Positions 3,798-58,050 of a stretch of DNA of 64,000 nt are shown in pieces (position 1 is the first letter of the stretch; each line of letters begins with the position of its first letter). The position numbers and the translations under genes are program-made. Location of the stretch: positions 8,224-72,223 of the forward strand of contig CAZCTC010000036.1 in the NCBI GenBank assembly GCA_964501335.1, read 5' to 3'. Source of the DNA: an uncultured Anaerolineales bacterium. Its GTDB lineage: Bacteria; Chloroflexota; Anaerolineae; B4-G1; SLSP01. The notes beneath the pieces are model-generated. The model searched no databases. It saw only the letters and a program-made list of their open reading frames with translations, and had not been told where the DNA came from.

Positions 3798-5564
3798 ATG
3801 TCCCCGTCCATTCGCTGGCGTATCGCCGTTCCCTATGTGGCCCTGATCATCGCCTTGATGACCGGCTTGATGATTTACCTTTCGATCCTGGTCGGCAACA
3901 CCTATAGCACCAACCTGCGCGACAAACTTCATGCCGAAGCCATCCTGCTCGCCGACGCCTTCAAACCGGAACTCCTGGCCGGGAAGACGGCCGAGGAAAT
4001 CAACCCGCTGGTGCAGGAATACGGCCGTCGTCTTAATGCCCGCGTCACGGTTATCGCCCCTTACGGTGCCGTCCTGGGCGATTCCGAGGTGGATTGGCAA
4101 ACCATGGATAACCACCTCAGCCGCCCTGAAGTCAAAAACGCCCTGGAAAACGGCGAAGGTGAAAACAGCCGTTACAGCAGCACCACGGACGAGCGGATGA
4201 TGTACATTGCCGTAGCCGTCAAAGAAGGGCAAACTCCCCTGGGCATCGTCCGGGCCGGCCTTTCGCTACGCGAAGTCGAGCAGAATACCAATCAGCTCCG
4301 CCGCACCCTCCTCCTTGCCCTGGTCGTGGCCACCCTGCTCAGTATCCTCCTCGCCGTCCTCATCGCCGAACGCACCGCCCGCCCCCTCCGCCGCCTTACC
4401 GAAGTGACCCAACGCATGGCCGACGGCGATATGACCGCCCACATCCTGCCTACCACCCGCGACGAAATCGGGCTGCTCACCCGAACCTTCAACCAGATGG
4501 CCGAACAGCTCCATGAAAAACTCGCTGCGCTCTCCGGCGAACGCGACCGCCTCAGCGCGATCCTCGACCATATGGCCGACGGCGTCCTCATTACCGATAA
4601 GGACGGCCGCGTCCGCATGATCAATCCCGCCGCCGCCGTGATCCTCAACCTGCGCGACATGACGGTCGGCTTCTCTTTCGCCCAAACGGTCCGCGATTAT
4701 CAGCTGATCGAACTCTGGCGCCATTGCCATGAACGCGGCGAAGAACAGATCGCCACGCTGGAAATCAACCTCACCCCCCGCTTCCTGCAAGTCATCATCA
4801 CGCCGCTGCGCACCGCCGACCTGGAAGGCTGCCTCATCATCCTCCAGGATCTCACCCCGATGCGCCGGCTGCAAACGGTGCGCCGCGATTTCGTCAGCAA
4901 TGTCTCTCACGAATTGCGCACGCCGCTGGCCTCGATCAAAGCCCTGGCCGATACCCTCCGCGAAGGCGCCCTGGCCGATCCACCCGCCGCCCGCAACTTC
5001 CTCACCAAGATGGAAACGGAAATCGATGCCATGACTCAACTCGTCGAGGAACTCCTCGAACTGAGCCGCATCGAATCGGGCAAGGCCCCCCTCCAATTCC
5101 AGCCCACCGCCGTCATGGACTTCGTCGCCCCGCCCACGGAACGGCTGCGCCCCCAGGCCGAGCGCGCCGGTATCACGCTCTCGCTGGATCTGCCCGACGA
5201 TCTGCCGCCGGTTCTGGTCGATAAGAGCCGCATCGCTCAGGTGATCACCAACCTGGTTCACAACTCCATCAAATTCACCCCCAAGGGCGGCCAGATCATC
5301 GTCTCCGCCCGCCAAAGCGGCGGCGAAATCATCATCACGGTCCGCGACACCGGCATCGGTATCCCCTCCGAAGCGCTGCCCCGCATCTTCGAACGTTTCT
5401 ACAAAGCCGACCGCGCCCGCTCCGGCGAAGGAACTGGCCTCGGTCTCTCCATCGCCCGCCATATCGTCCAGGCCCACCAGGGCCGCATCTGGGCCGAAAG
5501 CCTGGAAGGCCAGGGCACCACGCTCTTCATCGCCCTCCCGGTCGCTCCTAAAGAAAAAATTTAA
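3798..5564 (+). CDS. Sensor histidine kinase (periplasmic sensor-HAMP-PAS-HisKA-HATPase)
   Basis: RBS GGAGG. N-terminal TM, HAMP, PAS, H-box SHELRTPL, and N/G1/G2 boxes. Cognate of the upstream regulator. Confidence 0.9.
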   Translation: MSPSIRWRIAVPYVALIIALMTGLMIYLSILVGNTYSTNLRDKLHAEAILLADAFKPELLAGKTAEEINPLVQEYGRRLNARVTVIAPYGAVLGDSEVDWQTMDNHLSRPEVKNALENGEGENSRYSSTTDERMMYIAVAVKEGQTPLGIVRAGLSLREVEQNTNQLRRTLLLALVVATLLSILLAVLIAERTARPLRRLTEVTQRMADGDMTAHILPTTRDEIGLLTRTFNQMAEQLHEKLAALSGERDRLSAILDHMADGVLITDKDGRVRMINPAAAVILNLRDMTVGFSFAQTVRDYQLIELWRHCHERGEEQIATLEINLTPRFLQVIITPLRTADLEGCLIILQDLTPMRRLQTVRRDFVSNVSHELRTPLASIKALADTLREGALADPPAARNFLTKMETEIDAMTQLVEELLELSRIESGKAPLQFQPTAVMDFVAPPTERLRPQAERAGITLSLDLPDDLPPVLVDKSRIAQVITNLVHNSIKFTPKGGQIIVSARQSGGEIIITVRDTGIGIPSEALPRIFERFYKADRARSGEGTGLGLSIARHIVQAHQGRIWAESLEGQGTTLFIALPVAPKEKI

Positions 5565-5584
5565 AGCAGTACCGCAAAAGGCCT

Positions 5585-5710
5585 TTATTTGTTAAAAAGC
5601 GACGCGCTGGATGGGAAGAGAGAATTATTTTTTATTCATTTTTCGGCGGCTTCAGAAAGCCGCCGAAAAATGGCCTGTTCTTTCCCGTGTTTTCCGGGCT
5701 AACCGCACAG
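5585..5710 (+). repeat. Modular intergenic repeat element (forward orientation) with a 14-bp hairpin
   Basis: gacgcgctggatgggaagagag, then a T-rich stretch, then catttttcggcggc-ttcagaaa-gccgccgaaaaatg (5634..5669), then gcctgttctttcc, then ccgcacag. Confidence 0.85.
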
Positions 5711-5732
5711 GTCGAAAGCGAAAGGAAATAAC

Positions 5733-6869
5733 ATGTCCCCGCTCCAACCTTCACCCGCATTCCCCTTACCCGTTTCACGTTTTACGTTTTACGTTTCACG
5801 TTTTACGTTTTATCTCTGCCTCGTCCTCCTTCTCGCTGCCTGTTATGTCGGGCCGCAACCCGACGCCCGTCAGCCCATCATCCCGGAAGAAGTCCGCAGC
5901 GAATGTCCCGTCTGGGGCCGCGGCGGCTCCGTCCACGCCCGCCAGATCGCCTACGCCCCCGACGGCAAAACGCTCGCCGTCGCCGGCCAGGGCATCTCCC
6001 TGCGCGATACCGCTACCGGTCGCGGCCTCTGGTGTATCGATGAACTCGATCCCCAATTTATTATCGGCGGGCTGAAATTCAGCCCCGACGGACAGACCCT
6101 CGGACTCTACGTCGCCATCTCCAACACCTTACAGTTGCGCCGCGTCGACGACGGCACCCTCATCCGGGAAATCACAGACCCTACCGATTACCTCTATGAC
6201 TTTGATTTCTCGCCCGACGGCCGCTCTCTGGCAACAACAGCCGCAGACGGCACCGTCCGCTGGTATTCTCTCGCCGGCGATGCCAAACTCCTCTGGACCG
6301 CCGCCACTTCCGAATACGCCCCCGTCGCAACAGCCGTTTCCCCCGACGGCCGGACCCTGGCAGTCCGCTACTTCGACGGCCAACTGGATTTCCACAACAC
6401 GGCCGACGGAAGCTTGCAGCGAACGGTTAAACTGGATCTGATGGGCAGTACCGGCAAATTGATCTACACGCGAGATGGTTCAATCCTCATCGCCTGGACT
6501 GAAAACAAAATCCAGGCCCTCCGCCTCAGCGACAACCAGAATCTGCTCGCCGTGGAACTTACCCATGACTCGAAAAGCAGTACCATAATCAACAACGTCA
6601 TGCTCTCTCCCAATGGAAATCAGCTCGCCGTTCTGGCCATGGGTTGGCTCTGGCTGGAACCCGCCGAGAGTTCCAGCCTCTCCGACACCAAAAGCAGCGT
6701 CAACGATCAATACGCAATTAGCCTCTGGAACACCTCCGACTGGAGCCAGGAAAAAACCCTCAACGGCGGCAAATGGATCTACACCTTCGCCTACGCCCCC
6801 GACGGCCAACAAATTGTCACCAGCTGGAACAACGAGATCGCCTTCTGGAATCTGAAGTCTGAAAAGTAA
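5733..6869 (+). CDS. WD40/beta-propeller repeat lipoprotein
   Basis: Lipobox LLLAAC. Repeated ..SPDG(K/R)TLA.. blades. The N-terminal coding region holds a 21-bp tandem duplication encoding VSRFTFY twice. Confidence 0.7.
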   Translation: MSPLQPSPAFPLPVSRFTFYVSRFTFYLCLVLLLAACYVGPQPDARQPIIPEEVRSECPVWGRGGSVHARQIAYAPDGKTLAVAGQGISLRDTATGRGLWCIDELDPQFIIGGLKFSPDGQTLGLYVAISNTLQLRRVDDGTLIREITDPTDYLYDFDFSPDGRSLATTAADGTVRWYSLAGDAKLLWTAATSEYAPVATAVSPDGRTLAVRYFDGQLDFHNTADGSLQRTVKLDLMGSTGKLIYTRDGSILIAWTENKIQALRLSDNQNLLAVELTHDSKSSTIINNVMLSPNGNQLAVLAMGWLWLEPAESSSLSDTKSSVNDQYAISLWNTSDWSQEKTLNGGKWIYTFAYAPDGQQIVTSWNNEIAFWNLKSEK

Positions 6870-6871
6870 TT

Positions 6872-7099
6872 AACCCAAGTTGCTACCTCGATAAATCCAG
6901 CCCATGATTCAAGATCCGCTGCATGCCGTCTAAAAGTAGACAGCAGCAAGTAGACAGTAGACAGCAAAAATCTTCGCCTTACCGGCTCAAATGGACTGGA
7001 AATCCGCTGTCTACTGTCTACCGTCTACTTTCTACTAAACCTTTGCATACAAAAAAGCTTAAATAGAAAGCACGTCTTTTAAAGGTAGCAACTTGGGTT
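6872..7099. mobile_element. MITE-like non-autonomous element with perfect 17-bp terminal inverted repeats
   Basis: aacccaagttgctacct at 6872..6888 is the exact reverse complement of 7083..7099. The interior holds inverted TGTCTAC-array modules (6935..6965 and 7006..7037) and no ORF. It sits 2 bp after the WD40 stop. Confidence 0.6.
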
Positions 7100-7106
7100 G
7101 CTTAAC

Positions 7107-7227
7107 CTTTTTAACGTCCTGCATAGGTCGTTTTTCCCGTAAGAAACGTCGCGCGTGATGGAAGAAGAGAATTTTTTGTTCATGTTTTCGCGTGCCGCAG
7201 ACGGCACGCGAAAACATGGACCTTTTC
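7107..7227 (+). repeat. Modular intergenic repeat element (forward) with a covarying hairpin
   Basis: ttaacgtcctgcatagg..aaacgtcgcgcgtgatggaagaagag..catgttttcgcgtgccg-caga-cggcacgcgaaaacatg (7190..7227), then gaccttttcttg. Confidence 0.85.
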
Positions 7228-7230
7228 TTG

Positions 7231-7285
7231 CTGTCTACTGTCTACTTGCTACTGTCTACTTCTTCTTGCTACTGTCTACTTCTTC
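7231..7285 (+). repeat. TGTCTAC heptad direct-repeat array
   Basis: ctgtctactgtctacttgctactgtctacttcttcttgctactgtctacttc. Related arrays at 12411..12442, 39359..39390, 6935..6965 (reverse) and 7006..7037. Confidence 0.85.
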
Positions 7286-7349
7286 TTGCACTTTTCCCCA
7301 ATTGGACGTAAGATCGGATCAAACTAAAATTCTAACCATAGGAGATCCC

Positions 7350-8840
7350 ATGCGATTCACTCGATTCCGCTTCGCCGCAGGTCTGATCCTGCTGGCACTC
7401 CTTTTCGGCTGCACCCCCACCCCCACCGCACCGATGGGACCGACTCTGGAACTCGGCCCCTGTCATCTCTCCGCACCCGGCATCGCCAATCGCATCCCGG
7501 CCAGCTGCGGCACCCTGGAAGTTCCCGAAGATCGCGCCCACCCCGACGGAGCAAAGATCCAGCTCTACGTCGCCGTCGTGCCCGCCATCTCCAAAGATGC
7601 CGCCGGCGACCCGCTGGTCTTCATCACCGGCGGCCCCGGTGAATCCGCCACTCAGGATTACCTTCGGCTCTATACAGCCTTCAGCCGCATCAACCAAAAA
7701 CGCGATATTCTGTTGGTCGATCAACGCGGCACCGGCAAATCCAACCCGCTCGACTGCCCCGATATAGATCTGGAAGCCGGCGACGACAGCGAAACGGCCA
7801 AAAACGCTATCACCAACTGCTACGCCGCCCTGCCCGGCAACCCCAATTTCTACACCACCGCCGCCGCCGTTGAAGATCTGGAAGCCGTGCGCCAGGCCCT
7901 GGGCTACCCGCAGCTGAACCTCTACGGCATCTCCTACGGCACCCGCGTGGCCCAGACCTACATGATCCGCTATCCGCAAAACGTCCGCACTGCCATCCTC
8001 GACGGCGTCGTCCCCCAGGATGAGGCCCTCGGCAGCACCGTCTCCAGCGACGCCCAGCGAGCCCTGGATAAAGTCTTCGCCCGGTGCGCCGCTCAGACCG
8101 ATTGCAACGCCGCCTTCCCCGACCTCCCCGGCACCCTGAAAAGTATGCAGGAAGAGCTGGATCAACACCCCATCACCGTAACGGTCACCCATCCCACCAG
8201 CGGCGCCCCTACCGAAGTCCGCTTCACCCGCGACACCCTGGCCGGAGCGCTCCGCCTCTTCAGCTACAGCCCGGAAACCACCGCCCTGCTCCCGCTGCTC
8301 CTGCACTCCGCCCAAGAAACCGGCGACTACAGCCGCCTGGCCGCCCTCTCCCTCATCGCCGGCCAGGAATTGCAGGGCTCGATCAGCCAGGGCATGAACT
8401 ACTCGGTTGTCTGTGCCGAAGATGTCCCCTTCCTTTTCGATGAAAAAGGCAACTTCAAAGGCGACTATCCGGCAGAAAAAGCGACCTATCTCGGCGATTA
8501 CGTCCATAAACTGGTAGAACTCTGCCGGGATTGGCCCGTCAATCCGGTTTCAGCCGACTTCAAAGAACCGATCCACAGCGATATCCCCACCCTGCTCCTC
8601 TCCGGCGAAGCCGACCCCGTCACCCCGCCCGTCAACGCGGCCCAGGTTGCCGCCGGCCTGACCCACGGCCTTTCCCTGGTCGCCCCCGGTCAGGGCCACG
8701 GCGTCGCCATGCGCGGCTGCATGCCGCTCTTGATCACCGATTTCGTCGCCGCCGGAGATTTCGCTGCGCTGGATACCGGCTGCGTCGCTCAAATCCAGCC
8801 GCCCCCCTTCTTCCTCAACTTCGCTGGATCCAATCCATAA
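7350..8840 (+). CDS. Secreted alpha/beta-hydrolase lipoprotein (S33 TAP-like peptidase/esterase family)
   Basis: ATG at 7350 after AGGAG. Lipobox LLFGC. GGPG oxyanion motif and nucleophile elbow G-I-S-Y-G. The ORF-track start at 7155 runs through repeat DNA and was rejected. Confidence 0.75.
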   Translation: MRFTRFRFAAGLILLALLFGCTPTPTAPMGPTLELGPCHLSAPGIANRIPASCGTLEVPEDRAHPDGAKIQLYVAVVPAISKDAAGDPLVFITGGPGESATQDYLRLYTAFSRINQKRDILLVDQRGTGKSNPLDCPDIDLEAGDDSETAKNAITNCYAALPGNPNFYTTAAAVEDLEAVRQALGYPQLNLYGISYGTRVAQTYMIRYPQNVRTAILDGVVPQDEALGSTVSSDAQRALDKVFARCAAQTDCNAAFPDLPGTLKSMQEELDQHPITVTVTHPTSGAPTEVRFTRDTLAGALRLFSYSPETTALLPLLLHSAQETGDYSRLAALSLIAGQELQGSISQGMNYSVVCAEDVPFLFDEKGNFKGDYPAEKATYLGDYVHKLVELCRDWPVNPVSADFKEPIHSDIPTLLLSGEADPVTPPVNAAQVAAGLTHGLSLVAPGQGHGVAMRGCMPLLITDFVAAGDFAALDTGCVAQIQPPPFFLNFAGSNP

Positions 8841-12327: not shown

Positions 12328-12410
12328 CATCATTTAAGTTTTACTGCATGCAAAAGATTAGTAAACAGGATTCAGCAGATGACAGATTTTCCACCCATTT
12401 GAGATCTACC

Positions 12411-12442
12411 TGTCTACTGTCTACTTGCTACTGTCTACTTCT
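12411..12442 (+). repeat. TGTCTAC heptad direct-repeat array, 18 bp upstream of phoU
   Basis: cctgtctactgtctacttgctactgtctacttc. Confidence 0.85.
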
Positions 12443-12459
12443 TAAATAAGGAGATCATC

Positions 12460-36522: not shown

Positions 36523-37590
36523 TTAAACCCTCGCCAGAAACTTCCGCACCTTTCTGAACGATTCTTCCCAGGTAGGATGCTTCGCATAACTTTTACAGGC
36601 CCCCAGGCTCAACTCCACTAAAAATTCCCGCTCCAACGCCAACGACAAAATATAACCGCCCAACCGATCGATATCCCCAGGCATGATCAAATACCCATTG
36701 TCCCCCGGTTTGATCAACTCATCCGCCCCTCCGGCCGTCGTCCCGATAGCCGGCAATCCCCACCCCATACCCTCCAGGTAGGCCAACCCAAACCCCTCAT
36801 AATAAGAAGGCATCACCAACAACTGGCTCCGGCGCAGATGGTAAGTCAGCGCCCGCCCGTCCAACCGCCCCCGAAAGAAGATCATATCTTCCACCTCCTC
36901 CCGCTCTGCCAGCTTTTTCAAAAACGCCACATAGCCCGGATCCAGATCCATCGATCCGACCAGATTAAGCTCCATCCAGGGAGGAATCGACCCCATAGCC
37001 TCGATCAGATCTGCCACCCCCTTCCGGGGGATCAGATTGCCCAGAAAAATCATCCGAAGCGGACAATTCACCTGGGCCCGGGCAGCGATCTCATCCGGCA
37101 TGACCTTCGCCCCATCGGCATCTCGCCCCGGATAGGCAATCGGACCCTGGATTCGCCGGCCGGCGGCCCGACTCACCGCCCGCCGCGTGGCCTTGCTGTT
37201 ATAAATACACCCGGTCATCTGTCGCAAATAGAGCCGTTCCACAAAACGATAGAACAACCGCAGCCCCCATGGATGCGGCTCGCAGGAACGCAAATGATGG
37301 ACCAAAGCAATCAACGGCACGCCGGTAGCCTGCAACTCTCGATTGACCGCCAGCAATGAGGGGTGACTCAACTCATCCTGAATCCACACCTCGATATCAG
37401 AACGCTGAAAAATCTCCCGCGTAGAAGCCGTAAAATTATCTTTCAGATGACGGGGGTAATCGCGTCCCGGCAGGCTGAAAATCTCCACCTCATCGCCTTG
37501 CGCCCGCAGATAAGAGACCAGCTGCCGATCGTAAAGATACCCCCCCGATACACTCTCCAGACCGTCATAGATAACCAACCCGATCTTCAC
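36523..37590 (-). CDS. GT4-family glycosyltransferase
   Basis: GTG start after AGGAG. EX7E-type motif EGFGLAYLEGMGWGLPAI. Its start overlaps the upstream gene's stop by 26 nt. Confidence 0.8.
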   Translation of the reverse strand: MKIGLVIYDGLESVSGGYLYDRQLVSYLRAQGDEVEIFSLPGRDYPRHLKDNFTASTREIFQRSDIEVWIQDELSHPSLLAVNRELQATGVPLIALVHHLRSCEPHPWGLRLFYRFVERLYLRQMTGCIYNSKATRRAVSRAAGRRIQGPIAYPGRDADGAKVMPDEIAARAQVNCPLRMIFLGNLIPRKGVADLIEAMGSIPPWMELNLVGSMDLDPGYVAFLKKLAEREEVEDMIFFRGRLDGRALTYHLRRSQLLVMPSYYEGFGLAYLEGMGWGLPAIGTTAGGADELIKPGDNGYLIMPGDIDRLGGYILSLALEREFLVELSLGACKSYAKHPTWEESFRKVRKFLARV

Positions 37591-39124: not shown

Positions 39125-39300
39125 TGGCCCCGGCCTTGCCGCGTCCCGCAAATGGCCCTTTCCCCGTAAAAAACGACGCGCTGGATCGGAAGAGAGAGTT
39201 TTTTTGTTTATGTTTTCGGCGGCTTCGGAAAGCCGCCGAAAACATAGGCCTTTTCCTGAATCGCGTCGCTGCTTAACAACAAAACTAGGGAGAGGGGCAG
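39125..39300 (+). repeat. Complete modular intergenic repeat element (forward)
   Basis: gcgtcccgcaaatg, then aaacgacgcgctggatcggaagagagag, then T-rich, then atgttttcggcggc-ttcggaaa-gccgccgaaaacat (39210..39245), then aggccttttcc, then a tail. A tgtcctgaaaatag module precedes it and a TGTCTAC array follows at 39359..39390. Confidence 0.85.
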
Positions 39301-39400
39301 GGGTGAGGGCTAAACGCCAAAACATGTCCCTTTTCCAGAGCCGCCCCGGCGACACGGGCTGTCTACTGTCTACTTGCCGCTGTCTACTTCCGCTGAATTT

Positions 39401-41586: not shown

Positions 41587-41990
41587 GTGCGGGTAACCTG
41601 GAAAACGAGTGAAAAAAATTCTCTTCCAGCCCGCGCAGCGCTTCTTACCAGGAAGACACCTTCAGCGGGACGCAAAAATACCGCCCGCATGAATAAAACA
41701 GTTGGTGCGAAAAATGGGAGAAAAAAAGCCCGCGAAAACATAAATAAAAATTTCTCTCTATCCAGCGCGGCGCTTCTTACCGGGCAAAAGCCATTTGCGG
41801 GACGCTAAAATGCCGCCCACAGGGATAAAACAATGGATGCTAAAAAACGAGAAACAAAGAGCCCGCGAAAACATAAATAAAAATTTCTCTCTCTATCCAG
41901 CGCGGCGCTTCTTACCGGGCAAAAGCCATTTGCGGGACGCTAAAACGATCCCCATTCACATAGAAATAAAGCGGTTTAACCGGAGGTAAT
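41587..41990. repeat. Tandem array (~2.5 copies of 132-139 bp) of the modular element in reverse orientation, filling the feoAB upstream region
   Basis: Units begin tccagcgcggcgcttcttaccgggcaaaagccatttgcgggacgctaaaa.. at about 41624, 41763 and 41895. Confidence 0.85.
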
Positions 41991-44209: not shown

Positions 44210-44224
44210 AAATTCTCTTGCGAT

Positions 44225-44380
44225 TAGTATTTTAACGTCCCGCAAAAAGCTTTAGTTCGGCTCGAAGCGACACGCTGAATGGGTAGAAAGAGATTTTTTA
44301 ATCATTTTTTCGGCGGCTTCAGAAAACCGCCGAAAAAATGGGCTTTTCTTTCAAAAAACACCCTGGGTGACGCAACAACA
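44225..44380 (+). repeat. Modular intergenic repeat element (forward) between feoB and the feoC-like gene
   Basis: ttttaacgtcccgcaaaaag..gcgacacgctgaatgggtagaaagag, then cattttttcggcggc-ttcagaaaa-ccgccgaaaaaatg (44303..44340), then ggcttttctttc. Confidence 0.85.
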
Positions 44381-44791: not shown

Positions 44792-45637
44792 ATGAACCGC
44801 TTTATGCAAACCCTGTTATTCGCCACAACTACCTTTCTGCTGTTAAACGCCTGCACCGCCTCACCACCAGCAACAAATTCCACCCCCGAACTCTCTTCAT
44901 CTTCATTTCCCACCCACACGCCTTACCCCAACGACACTCCCACTCCCCGACCTTCTTCATCCGAATGTGATCCAACCCCGGTCGGTATCCTCGCGCTAGA
45001 AAACTATCACATGGCCGATGCCGGCAATTTCGTCCTGACCGCCGGGGAACCGGTAACACTTAGCTGGCAATCCGCGCCGGCAAATGCCGACCGCTACGAA
45101 TTCATTTTTATCGATATGAACACCAATCTCACCACCACCATCGCTATCGATGACAACCCCGCTGATGGAGCATCCATCCTCTGGAACCCACCGGAAGATT
45201 CAAGCCTCCACGTGAATGCCGTCGCTTACGATTCACAAGGATGCGGCACTCGCGCTTACTATACTCCTGAGGGAATCTATACCCGCAAAGGCCCCAAACC
45301 AAACGTATGCAGCCTGGAAATGATCACTTCCCTCCGTCAACCTTATTTTGACTTATATCCCCGGCCGACCTATGCCGCCACCCCGACCGCAGAACTGTAT
45401 GGATGGACCTATGTAGAAGTCTATCAGGTCACCACAGACCATTGGTATCAAATCGACGGCAGCACAGAAGCCTCCATCAAAGAATCAAGGACGGATCATC
45501 CTACCGATCCGATTTGGCTCCATCTCGATCCTGAAAAAGAAAATCATGCGATCTTTAAGGGCCCCTGCGAAAATCTCCCAGTCGTCCCAGCCGCCCCCAC
45601 CGAACCCACCCTGACACCAACGCCCAACAATGGATAA
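44792..45637 (+). CDS. Hypothetical secreted lipoprotein
   Basis: RBS AAGGAGG. Signal peptide and lipobox LLNAC. Pro/Thr-rich ends. Confidence 0.6.
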   Translation: MNRFMQTLLFATTTFLLLNACTASPPATNSTPELSSSSFPTHTPYPNDTPTPRPSSSECDPTPVGILALENYHMADAGNFVLTAGEPVTLSWQSAPANADRYEFIFIDMNTNLTTTIAIDDNPADGASILWNPPEDSSLHVNAVAYDSQGCGTRAYYTPEGIYTRKGPKPNVCSLEMITSLRQPYFDLYPRPTYAATPTAELYGWTYVEVYQVTTDHWYQIDGSTEASIKESRTDHPTDPIWLHLDPEKENHAIFKGPCENLPVVPAAPTEPTLTPTPNNG

Positions 45638-45639
45638 AA

Positions 45640-45900
45640 ATCCCGGCTATTTTCAAGACAGAAGGCCATGCCGGGGGCGGCACCCCGAAAGATGAAAATG
45701 GATTTTTGGGTTAGAGGGTGCCCATGCAGGAGCGCCCTACATTGGTGGTGTTCGCATAGGGGCGGCCCGATGTGGCCGCCCTTGGGGAGATTTTTGGACA
45801 ATGGCCCTATTTTCAAGACAGCTTTAACGCTGTGAGGCGGGGAGATCGCAAAGAGACGCAGAGAAAAATAAATTTTCTCTGCGTCTCTGCTGCTCCGAGT
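45640..45900. repeat. Cluster of dispersed repeat modules in reverse orientation
   Basis: The reverse complement of tttcggggtgccgcc..tgtcttgaaaatag lies at ~45640-45700. A GCCCTACA..ATAGGGGC hairpin at ~45740-45775 matches 13157-13197. The gagacgcagag..ctctgcgtctct hairpin at ~45855-45890 matches 995-1045. Confidence 0.8.
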
Positions 45901-45920: not shown

Positions 45921-48900
45921 TTAACCTTTCCGCATGACAGCCGGCAGATAGACTCGATAGGTGCGGAAGGTCGCCGTGACCGCCTTCGGCCCATCCATCG
46001 TCACCGTCACGACCGGCACCGCCGCCGTGACCGCCCCGCTCCAGCCGCCGAAGGAAACGGTCCTGGTCGTCGTCGCGCTCAACGTCACCACCGTCCCCGC
46101 CGTAAAGGTCGCCTGACAGGTGCCGCTGGAACAGTTCACGCCGGCCGGCAGACTGGTCACCAGCCCCGTCCCCTCGCCCGTCAGCGTCACCGTCAGCGTA
46201 TAGAGGTTCATCGCAAACGCAGCCGTGATCGTATGGTTCGCCATAACGTTGGTAAAGGTGTAGGCGTTCACCGCCCCCACCGTACTGCCGTCCACCCGCA
46301 CATCCACGATGTGATAACCGGTGCTGGGGCTGATCGTAAAGACCGCACTGCCGCCGTGATTCACCGTCTGCGGCGTGCTGGGACTGATCGAACCGTTCGC
46401 CCCGGCCGTCGGCGTGATCGTATAAATGTTGATCGCAAACGCAGCCGTGATCGTATGGTTCGCCGTGACGTTGGTAAAGGTGTAGGCGCTCACCGCCCCC
46501 ACCGTACTGCCGTCCACCCGCACATCCACGATGTGATAACCGGTGCTGGGGCTGATCGTAAAGACCGCACTGCCGCCGTGATTCACCGTCTGCGGCGTGC
46601 TGGGACTGATCGAGCCGTTCGTCCCGGCCGTCGGCATGATGGTATAAGTGTTGATCGCAAACGCAGCCGTAATGGTGTGGTTCGCCGTGACGTTAGTGAA
46701 AGTATAGGCGCTCACCGCCCCGACCGTGCTGCCGTCCACCCGCACATCCACAATGTGATAACCGGTACTCGGACTGATCGTAAAGACCGCACTGCCGCCG
46801 TGATTCACCGTCTGCGGCGTGCTGGGACTGATCGAACCGTTCGCCCCGGCCGTCGGCGTGATCGTATAAATGTTGATCGCAAACGCAGCCGTGATCGTAT
46901 GGTTCGCCGTGACGTTGGTAAAGGTGTAGGCGCTCACCGCCCCCACCGTGCTGCCGTCCACCCACACATCCACAATGTGATAACCCGTGCTCGGGCTGAT
47001 CGTGAAGGAAATCGTGCTGCCGTAATTCACCACCGTCGGCACGGCCGGACTGAGCGAACCGTTCGCCCCGGCCGTCGGCGTGATGGTGTAGGTGTTGATC
47101 GCAAACGAGGCCGTGACGGCTTTAGCTGTCGTCATTGTGAACACCTGGGGATTGCCGGTACCGCTCAAATCGCCGCTCCACCCGCTAAAGGTCGAACTGA
47201 TCAGCGGTGTCGCAGTCAGGGTGACCACAGTACCGGGCAAGAAACCATAAGTACAGGTGATTCCACAATTGATCCCGGCCGGATTGCTGGTCACATTGCC
47301 GATTCCCATACCGCTGAAATTAAGATTCAACAGCAGATAGGGTGATTCGTACGCTCCCGCATCGACGCTGTCACCGACAATCCGGACATTGCCGTCCAGA
47401 TCAGTCATCATGGTAACGCTGAGACTGTTTCCGGCATCGATCGCCGGCGAAACCATCTGCAAACGATAATCGCCGGTCGTGGTAGGAGCCGCCGTGGCAA
47501 TAATCGGCGTGGCGAACTTCGGATCGCTATACCGCATCCCGGTACCGCAGGTCGTTCCGGAAGGACAGCTTCCCTGAAGCACCGAAGAACTCAGCGCAGC
47601 CGTACCATTGTTGTTGTAAATTTCCGCCCCCGTCGTGGCGCTGTCGCCCCAAAAGATCGTGTTAACCGCAGTGGCCACACTGCCGGACCCATAATTATGA
47701 ATCGCGCCGCCCTGGCCGGCCCGGTTGCCGGCAAAGGTGACATTGAGCAAGCGCGGCGTCACGCTGCCGGAATAGCCGTTGTTGTAAATTCCACCGCCGC
47801 TGGAGCTGCCGTAGTTACCGCTGAAGAGTACGTTGATCAACACCGGGCTGCTGCTCCCCTGATAGCCATAGTTGTCCAGCCCGCCGCCATAAGCCGCCTG
47901 ATTGCCGCGGAAGATCACATGGGTCAATATCGGGCTGCTGACCCCGTTTCCGCCGTCGTTATACATCCCACCGCCGCTGCTGGCGCTCTGATTGCCGCTG
48001 AAGATCACATGGGTCAACTGCGGACTGCTGGTGCCGGAGCTGCCGTTGTTGTAAAGGCCGCCGCCGTAGGAAGCAGCCCGGTTTCCACTGATCGTCAGAT
48101 TGGCAAGGGTCGGACTGCACGCTTTGCCGCTGCCGTTGCCGGCGCAGTAGATCCCCCCGCCCGAATCGTTCGGAGCCGTGCCGGCCGCATTGCCTCCGGT
48201 AACGGTAAAGCCGTCGATCACCGTGGTCCCGGTAATCAGGCCGTTCGTCACCCCGTCCAGATAAAACACATGATAGGCATTGTTGGTCGCCAGCCCGTTT
48301 TTATCGATATCCCCGCTGAGGATGGTCGGATGCGCCGTCCAGTTGCGCTCGGAACGCTGCGTCTCGGTGGCGGCAAAACCGCCGTAAAGTTGCACATTGT
48401 TCCGATTGATCCGGAAAGTCTCCGTCAAGGCATTGTTCACATGCCCCGCGCCCTCATCGGGATAATAAGTTCCCTCAGCCACCCAGATCTCATAAGTCGA
48501 AGAGACATGCGCATGGGTCCAGGCCAGCGCCTCCTGCACATTGGTATAAGCGGTGCTCCAGGAAAGGCCGTCGGGAGTGCCGGTCGCATCCCTGTCGACA
48601 TAGAAAACATGGGCTTCGTAGGCTCCCCGATCCACCAGCGGAGCCGTGCCGTTGCCGGTATCGGCAGCCGGCATATCGACTTTGCGGGCCCAGCCATCCC
48701 GATCTGTCCCCGCCGGCACAACGTTATTGTCACCGGAATCGATCGCAGGCGACGTTAAACGCAAACGATAATTGCCGCTTGTTGTAGGAGCCGCCGTGGC
48801 GGTAATCGGCATAATAAATAAGGGATCGGTATAAAGCATCCCAGATCCACAACTCGCCAGGTCCGGACAGCCTCCCTCAATCGTACTGTAACTGATCACC

Positions 48901-50599: not shown

Positions 50600-50640
50600 T
50601 TCAGGTTTTCGCGCGCCTCAGAAGGCGCGCGAAAACCTGA
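50600..50640. repeat. Hairpin-family member (18-bp stem) followed by CCTTTTCTTC
   Basis: ttcaggttttcgcgcgcc-tcagaa-ggcgcgcgaaaacctgaa. Confidence 0.8.
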
Positions 50641-54783: not shown

Positions 54784-54824
54784 ATCACCTGTTCCTTATT
54801 TTGCTTATTTTTTATAACCGTGAG

Positions 54825-54990
54825 AGGCATTGTAGCGTCCCGCAAATGATCCCTTCCCGGCCCGATGCGACGCGCTGGATGGGAAGAAGAGTTTTTTGGT
54901 GGTGTTTTTGCGCGCATAAGAATGCGCGCAAAAACACAAGCTTTTTTCTCTGCGCCCTCGGCGCCTTTGCGGTGAAATCTGAGTGAATTA
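54825..54990 (+). repeat. Modular intergenic repeat element (forward) with a GCGCGC-core hairpin
   Basis: gtagcgtcccgcaaatgatccc..gcgacgcgctggatgggaagaagag, then gtgtttttgcgcgc-ataagaat-gcgcgcaaaaacac (54902..54937), then aagcttttttctc, then gcgccctcggcgcc. Confidence 0.85.
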
Positions 54991-57904: not shown

Positions 57905-58050
57905 GTATTTTCATATTTTCGCGCGCCGCCTGCGTAGCAGGTCAGATAAACAGAGAAAAGTTATTTTTATTCATTTTGTCGGCAGCATCAGAAAGCCGCC
58001 GACAAAATGAGCTTTTCTTTCTCTTGTTTTTCGGACTAGCCGTACAGGTG
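57905..58050 (+). repeat. Hairpin-family copies in the aspS/58124 divergent region
   Basis: catattttcgcgcgccgcctgcgtagcagg.. and cattttgtcggc-agcatcagaaa-gccgacaaaatg (57972..58009), then agcttttctttctc. Confidence 0.75.

Follow-up and report, generated by a model that had tools for sequence, protein, structure and literature searches.

A probable IS982-derived MITE in the repeat-filled spacer downstream of a WD40 gene in an uncultured Anaerolineales bacterium

The main result of this analysis is that a 226-bp segment, positions 6873-7098 of a 64,000-nucleotide window (the whole stretch of DNA analysed, from an uncultured Anaerolineales bacterium), is very probably a non-autonomous, MITE-type element derived from IS982. 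A sequence-only reading had proposed a MITE-like insertion at this place, and the proposal is upheld: the ends of the segment are identical to IS982 termini, the segment has no coding capacity, and many transposase-less sibling elements with clean 6-bp target duplications exist. Points that weigh against it include the single copy in 64 kb, the absence of an IS982 transposase from the window, and flanks that agree at only four of six positions.

As previously stated, the element lies downstream of a WD40 gene (5733-6869), whose TAA stop codon (6867-6869) falls within the left flank. The spacer and its downstream border are composed as follows.

6867-6872, no strand: left flank TAATTA, putative left copy of the target duplication; it fits TANNTA and holds the WD40 TAA stop (6867-6869)
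6872-6888, plus strand: left arm of the terminal inverted repeat, AACCCAAGTTGCTACCT; counted as an IS982-type end, it begins with the AC at 6873
6889-6933, no strand: left subterminal segment, unique, non-coding
6934-6970, minus strand: internal heptamer-array module, TGTCTAC TGTCTAC TTGCTGC TGTCTAC as read on the minus strand
6971-7005, no strand: central spacer, the fold-back loop; differs from the JGI contig at 7000 (A/G)
7006-7036, plus strand: internal heptamer array, TGTCTAC TGTCTAC CGTCTAC TTTCTAC
7037-7082, no strand: right subterminal segment, unique, non-coding
7083-7099, minus strand: right terminal inverted repeat, exact reverse complement of the left; the IS982-type end proper stops at 7098
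7099-7104, no strand: right flank TGCTTA, degenerate counterpart of TAATTA (4/6 match)
7105-7227, plus strand: copy of an intergenic hairpin module, …ACGTCCTGCA…ACGTCGCGCG…GGAAGAAGAGAA, T-run, 20-bp hairpin (7178-7221), T-rich tail
7228-7289, plus strand: external TGTCTAC array module, a 20-nt super-repeat in about 2.9 copies, directly after the hairpin module
7303-7330, plus strand: promoter-like hexamers (consensus match only)
7340-7344, plus strand: ribosome-binding site AGGAG; ATG at 7350
7350-8840, plus strand: alpha/beta-hydrolase gene (gene call)

The inverted repeat is perfect over 17 nt, as had been claimed: AACCCAAGTTGCTACCT at 6872-6888 (plus strand) has its exact reverse complement at 7083-7099, and the two bound a segment of 228 bp. 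It can be extended to 22 nt with two mismatches (6867-6888 and 7083-7104). The pair is the only one in the window, where allowing three mismatches gave no further match (0.10 expected by chance). The limits first given for the element, 6872 to 7099, are correct as the ends of the repeat, but if the element is taken to start with 5'-AC, as is conventional for IS982, it spans 6873-7098 (226 bp). Members of the IS982 family are about 1 kb long, with inverted repeats that have 5'-AC ends and follow AC(N)6T(N)5TT, and with direct repeats of variable length (PMC7335449). The terminus ACCCAAGTTGCTACCT begins with 5'-AC, has T9 and T16, and departs from this pattern by one base, a C in place of T at position 15. 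It is identical to the ends of elements encoding NF033520 transposases. On both sides the element matches IS982 termini at 17 of 17 positions, and so matches the ends of an autonomous IS family; the annotated IS982-family element of NZ_AP017563.1 likewise has exactly AACCCAAGTTGCTACCT as its left end.

Between these ends, the element is short and non-coding, as a MITE is expected to be. With 226 bp it falls well below the ~1 kb of an autonomous IS982, and it lacks the DDE transposase (about 270-330 aa) that such an element would carry. The absence of an ORF, already claimed, is borne out: the longest ORF overlapping the element has 58 aa. An IS982 transposase is absent from the entire window (tblastn with four IS982 transposases, best E 0.57). 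As a proxy for further copies, four small ORFs spanning the element were looked up by exact sequence in a protein collection, and none was present.

What links the ends to IS982 is the distribution of the 17-mer beyond the window. Public metagenome contigs were scanned for the exact sequence, which was found in at least 120 contigs from many environments, the 120 matches listed being a lower bound. IS elements with matching ends were found as well; they belong to the IS982 family and include that of NZ_AP017563.1. Chance occurrences of a 17-mer are expected in a collection of such size. We nevertheless consider the matches to be non-chance because of their flank bias, their recurring inner families, their positions at contig ends and the IS982 transposases that adjoin them. 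Among the matches listed, the base outside the AACCC end (-1) is T at 117 of 125 ends, A or T makes up nearly all of positions -5 and -4, and the flanks are otherwise variable; the inner side, again among the matches listed, falls into a few recurring sequence families. In many matches, no more than 50-110 nt separate the 17-mer from the end of its contig, a position typical of repeats. Facing pairs of the 17-mer some 920-950 bp apart (loci L022, L071, L114 and L106) enclose one ORF of 273-274 aa, and these ORFs score 169-191 bits with the NCBIfam model NF033520 'IS982 family transposase' (cut-off 130 bits) and also match Pfam DDE_Tnp_1_3. An IS982 transposase lies inward of the 17-mer in 42 of the 120 loci listed, at least 300 nt of interior sequence being present in only 86 of them. 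In an annotated replicon, plasmid NZ_AP017563.1 of Pseudanabaena sp. ABRG5-3, a gene annotated as IS982 family transposase has the exact 17-mer on its left and a one-mismatch copy on its right; this element has a 6-bp direct repeat, TACGTA, and interrupts an MBL-fold hydrolase gene. From these sequence matches, AACCCAAGTTGCTACCT is identified as a conserved terminus of IS982-family insertion sequences, and the degree to which ACCCAAGTTGCTACC is conserved between environments is unusual. The outcome under which no other copy exists anywhere and the repeat only closes a long hairpin is excluded as far as the ends are concerned, the 17-mer being both widespread and linked to IS982.

The same ends also bound short elements. 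Sibling elements were searched for among the retrieved loci, with up to three mismatches allowed in the second end. At least 12 short elements (103-255 bp) were found with the same ends and perfect 6-bp TANNTA duplications.

L073, L084, L099, L109: 103-bp MITE family, four copies, related soil metagenomes
L015, L062, L082: 142-bp MITE family, three copies
147-255 bp: single short elements with these ends, no transposase

The duplications at the short elements include TATATA, TACCTA, TATCTA, TAGATA, TATTTA, TATGTA, TAATTA and TAAATA, and one short element has TGAGTA. TAATTA itself, the sequence of our left flank, is the target duplication in L065 and L050. Several distinct MITE families (also in L065, L107, L037, L120 and L034) were observed in soil, freshwater and other metagenomes, with the IS982 terminus in common. 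IS982 ends of the AACCCAAGTTGCTACCT type have repeatedly spawned MITEs, since several short sibling families carry them. In some full-length IS982 copies the direct repeats are imperfect or 7-8 bp long, in keeping with the variability reported for the family.

At the window copy, no proper target duplication was found: TAATTA and TGCTTA agree at 4/6 positions, and lengths of 3-9 gave no better repeat. This is no real evidence of a duplication, because three of the four matching positions (1, 5 and 6) would be expected to agree from the target preference alone. The imperfect match lowers the support for an insertion but leaves room for an old one, because several full-length copies also lack perfect duplications. 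A joined, element-free form of the insertion site would read …CTGAAAAGTAATTAACCTTTTTAACGTCC…. We also observed that the extended left flank AGTAATT(A), at 6863-6871, is common to the window copy and three unrelated IS982 insertions (L095, L068 and L021), which suggests, as judged from these flanks, a target preference wider than the duplicated 6 bp.

The interior of the element has a symmetric layout. The two inverted TGTCTAC arrays reported within it are confirmed at 6934-6970 (minus strand) and 7006-7036 (plus strand), and are 84% complementary (6935-6965 versus 7006-7036). Outward of the arrays, the stretch 6889-6934 is identical to the reverse complement of 7037-7082 at 19 of 46 positions in register (41%; shuffle P 0.005), other registers of the two stretches scoring 4-16. 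Both 46-nt stretches run into an array, so that each half reads as terminal repeat, 46 nt and array, and the element looks like an old, decayed fold-back in which this unit was inversely duplicated. When the interior was searched against the window and 126 loci, nothing recurred except the ends and the arrays, and no interior in common was found in any of the at least 120 retrieved loci. The subterminal 46-mers, aligned locally to at least 120 IS982 and MITE interiors, did no better than shuffles, and the interior is therefore untraceable to a parent IS. Ends that match at 17/17 beside neighbouring DNA that is 41% identical are what would be expected if movement by a transposase had selected for the ends.

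These features can be accommodated in a simple scheme. Having no transposase of its own, the element would depend for movement on an IS982-family DDE enzyme, encoded at another place in the genome, that binds both of its ends. Supplied in trans, such an enzyme would insert the element at an AT-rich, TANNTA-type target after a staggered 6-bp cut. The window copy would have inserted at the TAATTA that holds the WD40 stop codon, directly 5' of a hairpin-repeat module of the host, and its ends would then have stayed perfect while the subterminal DNA drifted almost to randomness. We infer in this way the mobilisation in trans, the insertion at TAATTA and any effect on the transcripts of the WD40 or the hydrolase gene. 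The hairpin module of the host lineage was found in none of the at least 120 retrieved IS982 loci, and an IS982 with these ends is therefore only putative in that lineage. Apart from the locus itself, the nearest homologue of the flanking hydrolase has 56-57% identity, too little to offer an orthologous empty site.

An unlikely but not negligible alternative is that the element is a one-off relic, in which a single full-length IS982 inserted and then lost its interior by deletion or replacement, so that it never founded a MITE family and is now immobile. The single copy in the window, the interior without a match in at least 120 loci and the imperfect target duplication would all be accounted for, as would the fact that both assemblies of the locus pass straight through the element, which a high-copy, identical repeat often prevents. 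However, no coding remnant of a transposase was found in the window, and the symmetric, in-register fold-back (17 nt, 46 nt and array on each side, with the P value given above) is unlike the product of a simple internal deletion. The contrast between intact ends and their decayed neighbours likewise argues for ends that were maintained.

The element is embedded in other repeats. The description of the spacer as a repeat hot-spot is correct, but the hairpin element and the external array that follow the MITE are separate host repeat families and not part of it. Both had been reported, at 7107-7227 and 7231-7285, and both are real, at 7105-7227 and 7228-7289; the hairpin, however, is not unique, as the window contains at least 12 copies of it.

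628-768, 5553-5692, 39127-39262, 44222-44355, 54821-54955 and 57905-58025, plus strand: hairpin-module copies
2010-2458 (three tandem) and 41712-41952 (two tandem), minus strand: hairpin-module copies
36470-36532 and 50603-50638: hairpin-only copies
L124 116-252 and L122 about 2700-2780: hairpin-module copies outside the window

The module is about 125-155 nt long, intergenic, and occurs roughly once per 5 kb. Its conserved 5' part reads GCGTCCCGCAAA…CGACGCGC…GGAAGAGAGA and is followed by a T-run and a hairpin of 14-20 bp; the hairpin at 7178-7221 is a terminator-like site. Thirteen copies were aligned (7105-7227, 11 others in the window and one in L124). The consensus stem has 14 pairs, nine of which show compensatory changes, the stem sequence varying between copies while pairing is kept. 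Rfam gave nothing at gathering score over the whole window and only noise at E values up to 10 over 5400-7500, and a tRNA scan found none. Two further repeats were observed around this module: TCCATTTTCCTCTTTCGGGGTGCCGCC…CTGAAAATAG precedes it at 569-624, 898-973, 45635-45710 (inverted) and L124 40-110, and a module rich in ACGCAGAG/CTCTGCG recurs at 974-1054 and 45834-45886. These are further members of the mosaic repeat repertoire.

The TGTCTAC arrays are likewise dispersed. They are present in the spacer between the WD40 and hydrolase genes, as first reported, but are not confined to it.

12405-12443: array module, ending 17 nt before the phoU start codon
39354-39392: array module, 9 nt past the stop of a minus-strand gene
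L124 271-312, L122 4483-4521 and L123 2340-2515: array modules outside the window

The module has the form TGTCTAC-TGTCTAC-TTGCYRC-TGTCTAC-TT (TGTCTACTGTCTACTTGCNNCTGTCTAC). When a genome collection was scanned for it, just three contigs matched, none from the host genome: a pair belonging to one uncultured Anaerolineaceae MAG and a single contig belonging to an Acidobacteriota MAG. As the Anaerolineaceae MAG also has the hairpin module and the linker of the window, the host is probably a relative of the Anaerolineaceae that is missing from the representative genomes. Of the six external arrays, four come after the hairpin module, with or without a CCAGAGCCGCCCCGGCG…GGC linker in between, and the array thus behaves as the 3' module of a mosaic repeat; the order hairpin then array is also seen at 39132-39392 and at L124 121-312. 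The Acidobacteriota contig (L123) has an inverted array pair around a 55-nt spacer and no IS982 ends, from which it follows that inverted array pairs exist independently of the MITE. No match to the module was found in a viral collection, none to the arrays in a plasmid search, and the heptamer array sequence was not found in the literature by full-text search. Two candidate functions were set aside. A Pho box, considered for the array just upstream of phoU, finds no support in the spacing of 7 bp, in where the other arrays lie, or in their mixed orientation to genes. An RNA site of HutP or TRAP type (UAG every 7 nt on the minus strand) would be speculation, since for two of the three genes downstream the arrays are on the wrong strand.

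The array at 6934-6970, within the MITE, is 97% identical over 31-34 nt to 7228-7261, 39358-39389 and 12410-12440, and its region is 95% complementary to 7225-7261. TTGCTAC, the variant unit of the arrays (7246-7252 and 12425-12431), also occurs in the IS982 terminal repeat at 6880-6886, as AACCCAAG-TTGCTAC-CT. A second alternative, which we hold to be quite improbable, builds on such observations: the element would carry a functional heptamer module, the TGTCTAC/TTGCTAC arrays being putative protein-binding sites, or subterminal transposase-binding sites, that were spread or exploited by the MITE. In its favour are the near identity of the left internal array to three external modules while the adjacent MITE DNA decayed, the recurrence of the module, variant unit TTGCTAC included, in the Anaerolineaceae and Acidobacteriota MAGs, and the occurrence of TTGCTAC within the terminal repeat. 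On the other hand, most arrays lie outside IS982 ends, four of the six external ones following the hairpin module instead, their orientation to neighbouring genes is inconsistent, and slippage alone can keep tandem heptamers similar, unit turnover being seen between the two assemblies. The preservation of a near-identical array in a decayed MITE, together with this turnover, could reflect either slippage and concerted turnover or selection for a binding site. The sharing of TTGCTAC could be a coincidence (a rough post hoc estimate is of the order of 0.005) or could reflect a link between the arrays and transposase binding, in which case the arrays could serve as subterminal transposase-binding repeats. 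By a similarly doubtful proposal, (TGTCTAC)2-TTGCYRC-TGTCTAC would be the site of a sequence-specific DNA- or RNA-binding protein common to Anaerolineaceae and Acidobacteriota, of which the MITE captured an inverted pair. Were this true, the MITE could seed such sites at new loci and so disperse regulatory sites.

The computed RNA fold of 6860-7110 has an energy of -84.5 kcal/mol (z = -8.2); if transcribed, the element would form a hairpin of this energy. That the whole is a host-derived long palindrome or structured spacer unrelated to mobile DNA, the inverted 17-mers being only the base of its hairpin, is extremely improbable: this fold, a stem that runs a few pairs past the 17-mers and the inverted array pair without IS982 ends in L123 would suit it, but the 17-mer is base for base an IS982 terminus in the correct outward orientation, chance identity on both sides is negligible, and dozens of unrelated contigs, as well as a RefSeq plasmid, have this 17-mer beside an IS982 transposase. 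An IS982-derived MITE set among host repeats is the reading that we retain.

The locus was also compared between assemblies. A 44-kb JGI contig (sample 3300022666, L125), assembled separately from the same population, also has the element; in the 16.5 kb where it matches the window, there are four mismatches and a single gap. All four mismatches lie at 7000-7024 (4662-4686 of that contig), inside the MITE: an A/G difference at 7000 and three in the right array. The latter amount to a change in unit composition of the array at 7006-7036, one TGTCTAC being lost and one TTTCTAC gained. The differences at 7000-7024 may be due either to a local hypervariable spot or to assembly ambiguity. A k-mer assembly of the same population, the Logan SRR6476076 contig (L126), ends at about 7236 and about 12437 of the window, and so stops short of the MITE. 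As it breaks at arrays at both ends, the TGTCTAC arrays fragment assemblies.

Other repeats of the window are of a different sort. A CGTTTTA/CGTTTCA heptamer array at 5771-5812, effectively 21 nt in two copies, lies in the called N-terminus of the WD40 ORF; its translation is two copies of VSRFTFY, followed closely by a hydrophobic, signal-like stretch. Long tandem repeats were observed at 46197-47116 (222 nt, 4.1 copies, 90% identity) and 47704-48066 (90 nt, four copies), and probably belong to the coding sequence of a large, repetitive protein.

The identification of an IS982 MITE accounts for one third of the 480-bp, repeat-filled spacer. More generally, the terminus ACCCAAGTTGCTACC and the target TANNTA can be used to find IS982 elements and their MITEs in metagenomes, where these elements often break assemblies. 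The heptamer-array module might matter more than the MITE itself, as it has hardly changed within a decayed element and is found nearly unaltered at further loci and in other phyla.

Several known systems offer points of comparison. The REP/BIME sequences of E. coli and the BOX elements of pneumococci are mosaic intergenic repeats, short, abundant and modular, with a hairpin stem kept by compensatory changes, and occur singly or in tandem. The modules at 7105-7289 are alike in being short, abundant, intergenic, modular and hairpin-bearing, and in occurring singly or in tandem; they have many dispersed intergenic copies and a hairpin whose structure is preserved. They differ in having no sequence similarity to REP/BIME or BOX, nor do they belong to a family described in Rfam, where they have no match. 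To our knowledge, the heptamer array as a 3' module has no counterpart in mosaic repeats of the REP/BIME/BOX type. The STRR of cyanobacteria are tandem heptanucleotide arrays in the intergenic DNA of filamentous bacteria. The TGTCTAC arrays resemble them as tandem, intergenic 7-nt units in a lineage of filamentous bacteria, whereas the sequence of the unit and the phylum differ, and the TGTCTAC arrays form a fixed module of four units, one of them a specific variant, that is conserved from locus to locus and between genomes.

For the element itself, the nearest comparisons are with mobile DNA. With the IS982 family, as represented by the Pseudanabaena element of NZ_AP017563.1, it shares the 17-mer end, the 5'-AC and the AT-rich TANNTA target, with 6-bp duplications in the relatives; it differs in being 226 bp and not about 0.93-1 kb long, in being non-autonomous for want of a DDE transposase, and in an interior unrelated to that of any sampled IS982. 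The sibling MITEs from metagenomes have identical or near-identical ends and the same type of target, but unrelated interiors, and their 6-bp duplications are perfect whereas that of the window copy matches at 4/6. MITECca01 of Cardinium cOegib is a MITE of about 240 bp derived from an IS982-family element (ISCca4), present in multiple copies together with intact parents in the same genome (PMC9769881). Both it and the window element are about 230-240 bp long, without a transposase, and have inverted repeats like those of an IS982-family parent. The hosts differ, Anaerolineaceae-like for the window and a Bacteroidota endosymbiont for MITECca01; the ends probably differ as well, and the window element has inverted heptamer arrays. 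IS982-derived MITEs have thus already been described, and the window element adds another of the ordinary kind.
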